22,670 nt of DNA from positions 1 to 22,670 of the forward strand of contig PRDI01000088.1 in assembly GCA_003345595.1 (NCBI GenBank), given 5' to 3'. The notes beneath the pieces are model-generated. The model made no database searches and was not told the origin of the DNA. It saw nothing but the letters and a program-made list of their open reading frames with translations. The position numbers were made by a program, and so were the translations under genes. Positions 7,968 through 9,824 of this stretch are shown here, piece by piece; within the stretch, counting starts at the first letter, position 1; every line of letters starts with the position of its first letter. Origin of the DNA: Candidatus Thorarchaeota archaeon. GTDB lineage: Archaea > Asgardarchaeota > Thorarchaeia > Thorarchaeales > Thorarchaeaceae.

Positions 7968-8145
7968 GCTTCATGTTTCAGTGTGGATTTCATGTGATAG
8001 GCGTATGATTTCGCTAGGTTGTGAGCGAACGGTAATGGACAGAATATGTTAATATGTGCCCAAAGGGACACCCTGTTTAATTCCGAATCATGCTAGTCCC
8101 GATCGCAATGGGACCTTACCAACACAGAAATCGGAGAATGAATCG

Positions 8146-8277
8146 ATGACCTGTATCGAATACAATGCTGCAGATGAGAAGTGCAAGGTGGACGGCTTCA
8201 AGTTTTACAAGGGTATGCAGAAACCCTGTGAGTATGTAGGTAAGCGTGACAAGTGCCCCAGACTTGTCATGAAGTAG
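8146..8277 (+). CDS. Small four-cysteine protein (43 aa), putative metal-binding microprotein
   Basis: GGAG lies 9 nt before ATG 8146. Sequence MTCIEYNAADEKCKVDGFKFYKGMQKPCEYVGKRDKCPRLVMK is protein-like, Lys-rich and has 4 Cys. Confidence 0.6.
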   Translation: MTCIEYNAADEKCKVDGFKFYKGMQKPCEYVGKRDKCPRLVMK

Positions 8278-8875: not shown

Positions 8876-8978
8876 GCATACTTGGCTCACTGCCCGTGCT
8901 GAGTCCGTTCGAGAATTCGTTAAAAGGGATGGGACCAGCATAAGGTCCATCGGGACCAAACCACAGGAGGCAATCGGT

Positions 8979-9824
8979 ATTCCCGCTAAGACCCTTTCAA
9001 GAAAGCCCTTCGCACTTATGCTGCTGGATGAATCTGGAGAACTGAAATCAGTCAGGCTGGATTCCAGTTACGTGACAAGCGATAACGCTGTCATTGTGCT
9101 TGATGAGTATCATGACACATGTTGGGTGTGGATCGGCAAGAATGTCAGCATGCCGACGAGGATGCACGCCCTACGAATGGGAAAGAGCGTGCAGAAGGCA
9201 GGCCACAAGGTTGGCACCACAACAATTGGCATGGCATCGTCACGGATTGTTGAGATGAACGAGAAGAATGAAACCGACCCTGAGGTCGCTTCCAACATAT
9301 CCTCATTCAGAGAGGCCCTCAGGGCAAAGTGGAAGTTTGAGGACGAGATACTGGCGTTCGATGAGAGCCGAGTAACAGGTGGCGCACCTCTCGCGGCAAG
9401 AAGAATGGAAGCTCGTGCCCCAGTGACGCCGCCGACTCTGACCGCAACAACCGTTGCGCTGTCCTCTAGGCCCCCGCCTCCCCCTCCAAGGCAAGTACCG
9501 TTCACACCTTCTCGAGAACCAAAGACCAGTGCCGCTCCAATGCCGCCCAGGACGAAACCTGCAGCGCCAGAGAAGGTCGAAACAACAGTCGACCAAAAGC
9601 TGGCATATCTGCTTCTCTCAACCATCAAGAACTCAGATCTTGTCTACACAGAGAGGTTTGAGAGGAATGGTAAGATCGGATTCAAGATTGAAGCACCCGG
9701 GATTGTCGTTGTAGAGGCGATTCTGGATGGCAACACATTGAGGATTGAACCGCCAAGCTTTGGCGACTCTGAGGGTGCATCACGCATCAGGTCGGAGTAC
9801 GAGTCTTGGATGAGCAAGACCTAG
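8979..9824 (+). CDS. Gelsolin-domain protein with Pro/Thr/Ala-rich polyproline linker and C-terminal domain of unknown function
   Basis: VRLDSSYVTSDNAVIVLDEYHDTCWVWIGKNVSMPTRMHALRMGKSV...RIVEMNE...FREAL matches the gelsolin repeat consensus (V.L..SSL.S.DVFILD....IYVWxG..AS..E...A...A...I..V.E....F...L). PPPPPP at 9471-9488. The first ATG is 9018; the RBS suggests ATT 8979. Confidence 0.82.
   Translation: MPAKTLSRKPFALMLLDESGELKSVRLDSSYVTSDNAVIVLDEYHDTCWVWIGKNVSMPTRMHALRMGKSVQKAGHKVGTTTIGMASSRIVEMNEKNETDPEVASNISSFREALRAKWKFEDEILAFDESRVTGGAPLAARRMEARAPVTPPTLTATTVALSSRPPPPPPRQVPFTPSREPKTSAAPMPPRTKPAAPEKVETTVDQKLAYLLLSTIKNSDLVYTERFERNGKIGFKIEAPGIVVVEAILDGNTLRIEPPSFGDSEGASRIRSEYESWMSKT

Follow-up and report, generated by a model that had tools for sequence, protein, structure and literature searches.

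To our knowledge, Asgard archaea are the only prokaryotes that possess a eukaryote-like, regulated actin cytoskeleton, and few Asgard actin regulators are known, namely the profilins, ProGel, 1DGelX and 2DGel. The gelsolin fold is built of a central mixed β-sheet that lies between a long helix and a short helix, and in gelsolins it is the long helix that contacts actin. ProGel (PDB 7C2F) is a bare domain of 88 amino acids (aa), and 1DGelX (KXH72031.1) joins a single gelsolin-homology (GH) domain to a Pro-rich linker and a C-terminal 'X' domain; the GH domain of 1DGelX has been reported to be 35–47% identical to ProGel (Akil et al. 2020, PMC7444086). In addition, five GH proteins have been found to be significantly enriched with Lokiactin in co-immunoprecipitation (co-IP), one of which, B35_Gel2, is expressed in Lokiarchaeum and is listed under that name in Table S3 of the study (UYP48324.1; Radler et al., bioRxiv 10.1101/2025.11.30.690169). 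The gene examined here is encoded at 8,979–9,824 on the forward strand of a stretch of 22,670 nucleotides (positions 1–22,670 of contig PRDI01000088.1, assembly GCA_003345595.1, Candidatus Thorarchaeota archaeon), which is referred to below as the window. Its product is probably the Thorarchaeal member of a pan-Asgard, B35_Gel2-type family of proteins with a single GH domain, a family that was previously known as a name in that preprint and as an automatic UniRef label.

The original prediction, which was made from the sequence alone, had divided the protein into a gelsolin-like repeat, a disordered linker and a compact C-terminal domain, and this three-part layout is recovered at the stated positions in an AlphaFold2 (AF2) model built on 35 homologues, where two confident domains flank a disordered stretch. 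The N-terminal part (residues 1 to about 120, numbered from the ATG at 9,018) is modelled with confidence, its predicted local distance difference test (pLDDT) score being about 80–91, and AF2, VIA-align, Foldseek and hhalign together delimit a divergent GH domain at 9,018–9,365 (forward strand, residues 1–116). The best structural match of this domain is Thorarchaeal ProGel: VIA-align superposes the model on 7c2f_D with Z 11.8 and a root-mean-square deviation of 1.9 Å over 84 of 88 residues, at an identity to ProGel of only 16% in this structural alignment, and Foldseek pairs it with 7c2f_B at a probability of 1.00 and a target-normalised TM-score of 0.72. All 17 chains that VIA-align places at Z of at least 8 are gelsolin, villin, fragmin, adseverin or Asgard 2DGel domains (Z 8.2–11.8), and ADF-H domains score about 5. 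The domain further carries the DWG-type signature of strands B and C (D29...W38-x-G40) within the segment L-D-E-x6-W-V-W-I-G; in a broad alignment G40 is invariant, and the conservation of D29 and W38 is 90% or more. In a profile-profile comparison, hhalign aligns the broad family profile to the gelsolin domain of the 1DGelX family (96.7%, E 3.2e-10), where W38 and G40 fall opposite the W and G in the motif Y-L-W-K-G of 1DGelX. Because the structural matches, the signature and the profile-profile match agree, the N-terminal domain is read from model and sequence together as a true, if divergent, gelsolin-domain homologue and not as a fold analogue, as had been proposed for the repeat. The strongly conserved long helix (M45–G62), which is the most conserved part of the GH domain, begins with M-P-T-R-M-H and has no acidic residue there, which hints that a Type II Ca2+ site is lacking.

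A search of 5.8 billion clusters returned 251 homologues of the window protein, nearly all of them annotated as 'hypothetical protein' in Thorarchaeota metagenome-assembled genomes. The family is matched in 260 of 400 genomes of the phylum and in 78 of the 85 genomes of the window's own taxonomic family, where it is almost always single-copy, and distant representatives (23–32% identity) carry the names of Hod-, Odin-, Ran- and Lokiarchaeota. A hidden Markov model of the N-terminal domain matches 66 of 70 of these distant representatives. Furthermore, the family profile has a single match in a closed genome of 6.0 Mb, where the open reading frame (ORF) is letter-for-letter identical to UYP48324.1 of Candidatus Lokiarchaeum ossiferum, that is, to B35_Gel2; by BLASTP, the N-terminal domain of the window protein is 29% identical to it (E 3e-15). 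The two proteins present a GH domain, a disordered linker and an α-β4-α domain in the same order and are of similar size (240 aa in B35_Gel2, and 268 or 281 aa in the window protein depending on the start codon). They differ in an N-terminal KTLSRKPF extension, often located behind an apparent ATT start codon, which is a feature of the Thorarchaeal proteins.

The C-terminal part of the window protein (9,582–9,821, forward strand, residues 189–268) belongs to no assigned family. In the full-length AF2 model, residues 189–267 reach a pLDDT of about 91, and when the domain is folded alone from 61 sequences it adopts an α-β4-α topology with a pLDDT of 94.2 and a predicted TM-score of 0.84. The models thus present this region as a folded domain and not as disorder, and as the compact domain resisting assignment that had been anticipated. 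Among 61 Thorarchaeal sequences, the mean column identity of the domain is 68%, and an E, a K and an E on its strands, within the motifs Y-T-E-R-F and K-I-E, are invariant; these conserved charged residues suggest a binding surface. In a wide PDB search with VIA, the best match is a designed minibinder (Z 6.2), followed by the PGM C-terminal domain, the RNase H3 N-terminal domain, KA1 domains and frataxin (Z 4.5–5.9), a heterogeneous set from which no family stands out. Likewise, Foldseek against the PDB gives no convincing match (best E 0.086), a shape search of the ESM Atlas gives a good match to the domain's own Thorarchaeal cluster only (TM 0.89), followed by an RnlA-type domain (TM 0.60), and a language-model search of named clusters yields only Asgard gelsolin-like clusters with sub-threshold scores. 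Binding of acidic lipids in the manner of KA1 domains was considered and judged unlikely, the C-terminal domain being net acidic.

The C-terminal domain can nevertheless be followed beyond Thorarchaeia when profiles are compared: hhalign aligns the Thorarchaeal C-domain profile with that of the Loki/Odin/Hod-type proteins, B35_Gel2 included, over 77 of 83 columns (96.5%, E 9.2e-10), a result that is significant in the profile-profile comparison alone and not when the Thorarchaeal profile is set against the single L. ossiferum sequence. Taken with the N-terminal matches, these alignments indicate that both folded domains are homologous across the whole family. A distant subgroup (representatives P0154, P0163, P0168, P0172, P0181–P0183 and P0192) keeps a cryptic GH domain and has a coiled-coil-looking C-terminus in place of the α-β4-α domain.

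The explanation we favour, and hold with a fair degree of confidence, is that the window gene encodes a B35_Gel2-type protein in which an actin-binding GH domain is joined by a flexible linker to a C-terminal domain that supplies a second contact. The GH domain would bind actin as other gelsolin domains do, with its conserved long helix inserted at the actin surface. The tethered C-terminal domain would then provide the second contact, which may be self-association, binding to the side of the actin filament or the docking of a partner, and with it a protein that binds weakly at one site could become a capping, severing or bundling factor, by analogy with ProGel versus 1DGelX.

Judged from the predicted structure and the sequence, the window protein is likely to be an actin regulator. 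Indirect support comes from the Lokiarchaeal member of the family, for which 19 peptides with 68% coverage were recovered in the anti-Lokiactin co-IP, with a log2 ratio of 2.58 (p 6.4e-5, adjusted p 0.0028); actin itself reached 4.44, B35_GelX 2.28 and B35_Gel1 2.08 in the same experiment (bioRxiv 10.1101/2025.11.30.690169). Several observations weigh against an actin role. The co-IP reports association, which need not be direct, and comes from a different Asgard class. All of the structural evidence comes from predicted models, and the gelsolin fold is also found in Sec23/24, where it does not bind actin. To sequence methods the relationship is hardly visible: the PF00626 match that might have been expected is absent, since neither the complete protein nor its separate domains have a significant match in Pfam, with no PF00626 match at E≤10, and when the whole genome is scanned with PF00626, four other gelsolin genes are picked up and the window ORF is missed. 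An NCBIfam scan of the window protein is likewise without a match, and PDB sequence searches started from the protein itself or from the family profile return a non-significant villin (E 0.89) and no gelsolin chain. Among the distant relatives, only 2 of 46 reach E 0.0012 with PF00626. The missing match reflects divergence, as the profile-profile homology is significant. Lastly, no cytoskeletal gene lies in the neighbourhood of the window gene or in the two other loci compared, where the genes are metabolic or housekeeping only.

In a rival explanation, the gelsolin fold has been re-used for a non-actin partner, as it was in Sec23/24, and the signal of the Lokiarchaeum co-IP arises indirectly. 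Such re-use would fit the strong divergence of the N-terminal domain and the absence of cytoskeletal genes nearby, and the gelsolin-like domains of Sec23/24 do match the model, with Z 5.3–7.9 (7.9 for Sec23). The actin-binding gelsolin domains clearly outscore Sec23, however, and the conservation of the GH domain is highest in the very helix that contacts actin in gelsolins. The enrichment of the Lokiarchaeal family member with Lokiactin, together with four other GH proteins, also speaks against re-use, which is therefore regarded as rather unlikely.

The resemblance to 1DGelX raises the question of whether the window protein is simply its orthologue, which would make it a Ca-independent severing protein, and 1DGelX was the comparison suggested in the original prediction. 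The likeness is considerable, as both proteins consist of one GH domain, a Pro-rich linker and a C-terminal domain, are restricted to Asgard archaea and have remotely homologous N-terminal domains (for the 1DGelX layout see PMC7444086). However, the place of 1DGelX in this genome is already filled by a 314-aa protein encoded on contig C103, in which a gelsolin domain and a Pro-rich linker are followed by a different C-terminal region. Over its gelsolin domain, the C103 protein shares 44% identity with the 88-aa ProGel of the genome (E 8e-28), within the range reported for 1DGelX, and among its family members is a 304-aa protein of assembly SMTZ1-83, from which the published 1DGelX was taken. 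The window protein, in contrast, shows no similarity by BLAST to either the C103 protein or the ProGel of the genome. An hhalign comparison of the two families pairs only their N-terminal domains and leaves the C-terminal domains unaligned. Members of the 1DGelX family close with an acidic stretch, then a basic one and finally an invariant KLVAK, whereas the window protein ends in W-M-S-K-T. Their surroundings differ as well: the C103 gene (719–1,663 of locus L005, minus strand) is followed on that strand by a Roadblock/LC7 gene (183–572 of L005; PF03259, E 1e-10), and the window gene has no Roadblock neighbour. With a separate orthologue on C103, no BLAST similarity, an unrelated C-terminal domain and no KLVAK tail, the identification of the window protein with published 1DGelX was ruled out, and orthology between the two is given almost no credence; the window protein belongs instead to a separate paralogous family that coexists with 1DGelX in the genome. 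In the alignment of the 1DGelX family, 'domain X' looks α/β rather than the coiled coil that was predicted in 2020.

The two folded domains are joined by a disordered linker rich in Pro, Ala and Thr (9,366–9,581, forward strand, residues 117–188), which comprises 72 aa with 25% Pro and a net charge of +7, and over which (residues about 121–188) the AF2 pLDDT is 39–65. In 121 close homologues the linker measures 41–104 aa, with a median of 25% Pro versus 2.9% in the folded domains. The composition of the linker is lineage-specific: it is Pro-rich in Thorarchaeia, shorter and moderately Pro-rich without a polyproline run in the Lokiarchaeal member, and Ser-rich instead in a Harpocratesius relative. 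A T-L-T-A-T-T-V motif (9,435–9,455, forward strand), of the general type [TVIL][TVA]A[ETKD][TD][VIL], occurs in about half of the homologues (60/121), and the form [LIV]-[TV]-A-[ET]-T-[VI] is likewise found in about half of the 121. In other clades (60/121), an E-P-I-A-G-A-P-type motif is present in one to five copies in tandem and is a candidate for a repeated short linear binding motif; in the linkers of P0048, P0068, P0081, P0100, P0109, P0118 and P0120, one to five tandem repeats of the type K-P-K-P-x-Y-D-E-P-I-A-G-A-P can be seen.

The most conspicuous element of the window linker is the hexaproline tract RPPPPPPR, which lies exactly at 9,468–9,491 (forward strand), as had been noted, and is followed by PMPPR, also within the disordered segment. 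Its Pro codons are mixed (CCC CCG CCT CCC CCT CCA) and it is therefore not a recent slippage product. Simple arithmetic for a linker of 73 residues with 25% Pro gives an expectation of about 0.01 runs of at least six Pro per sequence, and thus composition alone does not explain the tract. The hexaproline is kept in a relative of 93% identity, and the next relatives have PPPPP, PPPP or PPP. Across the 121 close homologues, runs of at least three Pro are found in 52 and runs of at least five in only 13; the long runs are located at varied linker positions depending on the clade, in at least five sequence contexts within Thorarchaeia, and are often flanked by Arg or Lys. The polyproline tract is accordingly not conserved across homologues, and the hexaproline characterises a clade and not the family, its meaning being uncertain.

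It had been proposed that such a tract could recruit profilin. In the corresponding explanation, confined to the clade of the window protein, the hexaproline would bring profilin-actin to a gelsolin-type capper or nucleator, making the protein a primitive formin- or VASP-like factor for elongation or nucleation. The host, an Asgard archaeon of the Thorarchaeia, does have an actin toolkit: its genome encodes an actin on contig C26, two tandem profilins, 2DGel, ProGel and 1DGelX-like genes. The profilin paralogues, located on contig C129 (L045 and L046), are 66% and 42% identical to the profilin of a relative; a scan with Pfam PF00235 at E≤1 finds no profilin in the genome, which is a problem of sensitivity, as the relative's profilin used as a query finds both. 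The mixed codons, the retention of the tract in the closest relatives and the appearance of Arg- or Lys-flanked runs in at least five linker contexts also favour recruitment, and a Thorarchaeal profilin binds a VASP polyproline peptide, albeit weakly (dissociation constant 200–500 µM), in an activity that has been demonstrated for a minority of profilins, those with an N-terminal extension, and that Lokiarchaeal and Odinarchaeal profilins lack (PMC8410842). Against it stand this very low affinity and the distribution of the runs, as 52 of the 121 homologues have neither polyproline nor the EPIAGAP-type motif and the Lokiarchaeal orthologue that co-purifies with actin has no polyproline at all. 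Moreover, a comparable Pro-rich linker is present in the unrelated 1DGelX family, in keeping with a generic extended spacer. Like the eukaryotic profilin ligands formin FH1 and Ena/VASP, the window protein places a six-Pro run in a disordered segment beside a presumed actin-binding module, but it has a single, non-conserved tract instead of an array and no FH2, EVH2 or WH2 module. Recruitment of profilin-actin by the hexaproline is consequently held to be distinctly unlikely. Since polyproline is found in 13/121 homologues and is absent from the Lokiarchaeal member, profilin recruitment is not a property of the family and would be a clade-specific extra at best. Of the original prediction of an actin and profilin regulator, the actin part is made plausible by the Lokiarchaeal co-IP, while family-wide recruitment of profilin through polyproline does not stand.

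A more ambitious proposal combines the two ends of the protein. In it, the C-terminal domain would be a new module of the actin cytoskeleton that enables severing, capping or bundling through filament side-binding or dimerisation, and the hexaproline of the clade would additionally recruit profilin-actin. We give this combination only a slim chance. If it were true, a prokaryotic barbed-end binder would be joined to a profilin-actin feeder, which is the logic of formin and Ena/VASP elongation factors.

The 5' end of the gene deserves separate attention. The listed ORF starts from the ATG at 9,018 and runs to 9,824 on the forward strand (268 aa), and the frame remains open upstream of this ATG as far as 8,979; the proposed full coding sequence, which starts from an ATT, accordingly spans 8,979–9,824 on the same strand and encodes 281 aa plus a stop. 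The additional 13 codons (8,979–9,017, forward strand) specify a conserved N-terminal extension, I/M-P-A-K-T-L-S-R-K-P-F-A-L, which takes the form I-P-A-K-T-L-S-R-K-P-F-A-L in the window, and homologues that have an ATG at the first codon of the extension begin with M-P-x-K-T-L-S-R-[KR]-P-F. Start codons were compared between the window and loci L006, L007 and L010–L037. A K-x-LSR-[KR]-P-[FY] extension is encoded in 29 of 29 orthologous loci; three codons ahead of the Lys, most of them have ATT and five have ATG. In 13 of the 29, the window among them, no ATG, GTG or TTG is present from the upstream stop to the conserved peptide. Between the genomes of the window, L006 and L007, the codons of the extension differ mostly at third positions, and these wobble changes imply coding constraint. 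A Shine-Dalgarno-like AGGAGG (8,965–8,970, forward strand) can be read in the sequence 8 nt upstream of the ATT, L006 has the identical layout of AGGAGG, 8 nt and ATT, and no comparable site precedes the ATG at 9,018. Because the extension is encoded in all 29 loci and 13 of them lack a canonical start, the ATT at 8,979 is probably the initiator, in agreement with the start position initially put forward, and an ATT initiation codon of this gene appears to be conserved in many Thorarchaeia. A TTAAAAGG element is located at 8,920–8,927, about 52 nt upstream of the ATT, and could be the archaeal TATA box of the gene; the leader would then be short and include the Shine-Dalgarno-like site.

The neighbouring genes encode subunits of 2-oxoacid:ferredoxin oxidoreductase (POR), a small AsnC-type protein, a convergent GNAT acetyltransferase, GalT, GalK and a GH38 mannosidase. 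The order POR subunits, (AsnC-type gene), window gene, convergent GNAT, GalT and GalK is conserved, being seen again in two further Thorarchaeal genomes, and gives no hint of a function for the window gene. An ORF of 73 aa (8,056–8,277, forward strand), placed between the POR genes and the AsnC-type gene, has four Cys in a C-x9-C ... C-x9-C arrangement; it has no Pfam match and may not be a real gene.

To conclude, the B35_Gel2-type family is present in single copy almost throughout Thorarchaeia and is also widespread among Loki-, Odin-, Hod- and Ranarchaeia, and it has been invisible to Pfam and annotated as 'hypothetical'. What is new here, at the strength given above, is that both folded domains are homologous throughout the family, that the C-terminal region is predicted to be folded, and that the family is separated from 1DGelX. 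In practical terms, if the ATT start holds, automatic annotation by gene callers shortens many of these proteins by 13 residues. More broadly, the findings give handles on how actin regulation diversified before eukaryogenesis.

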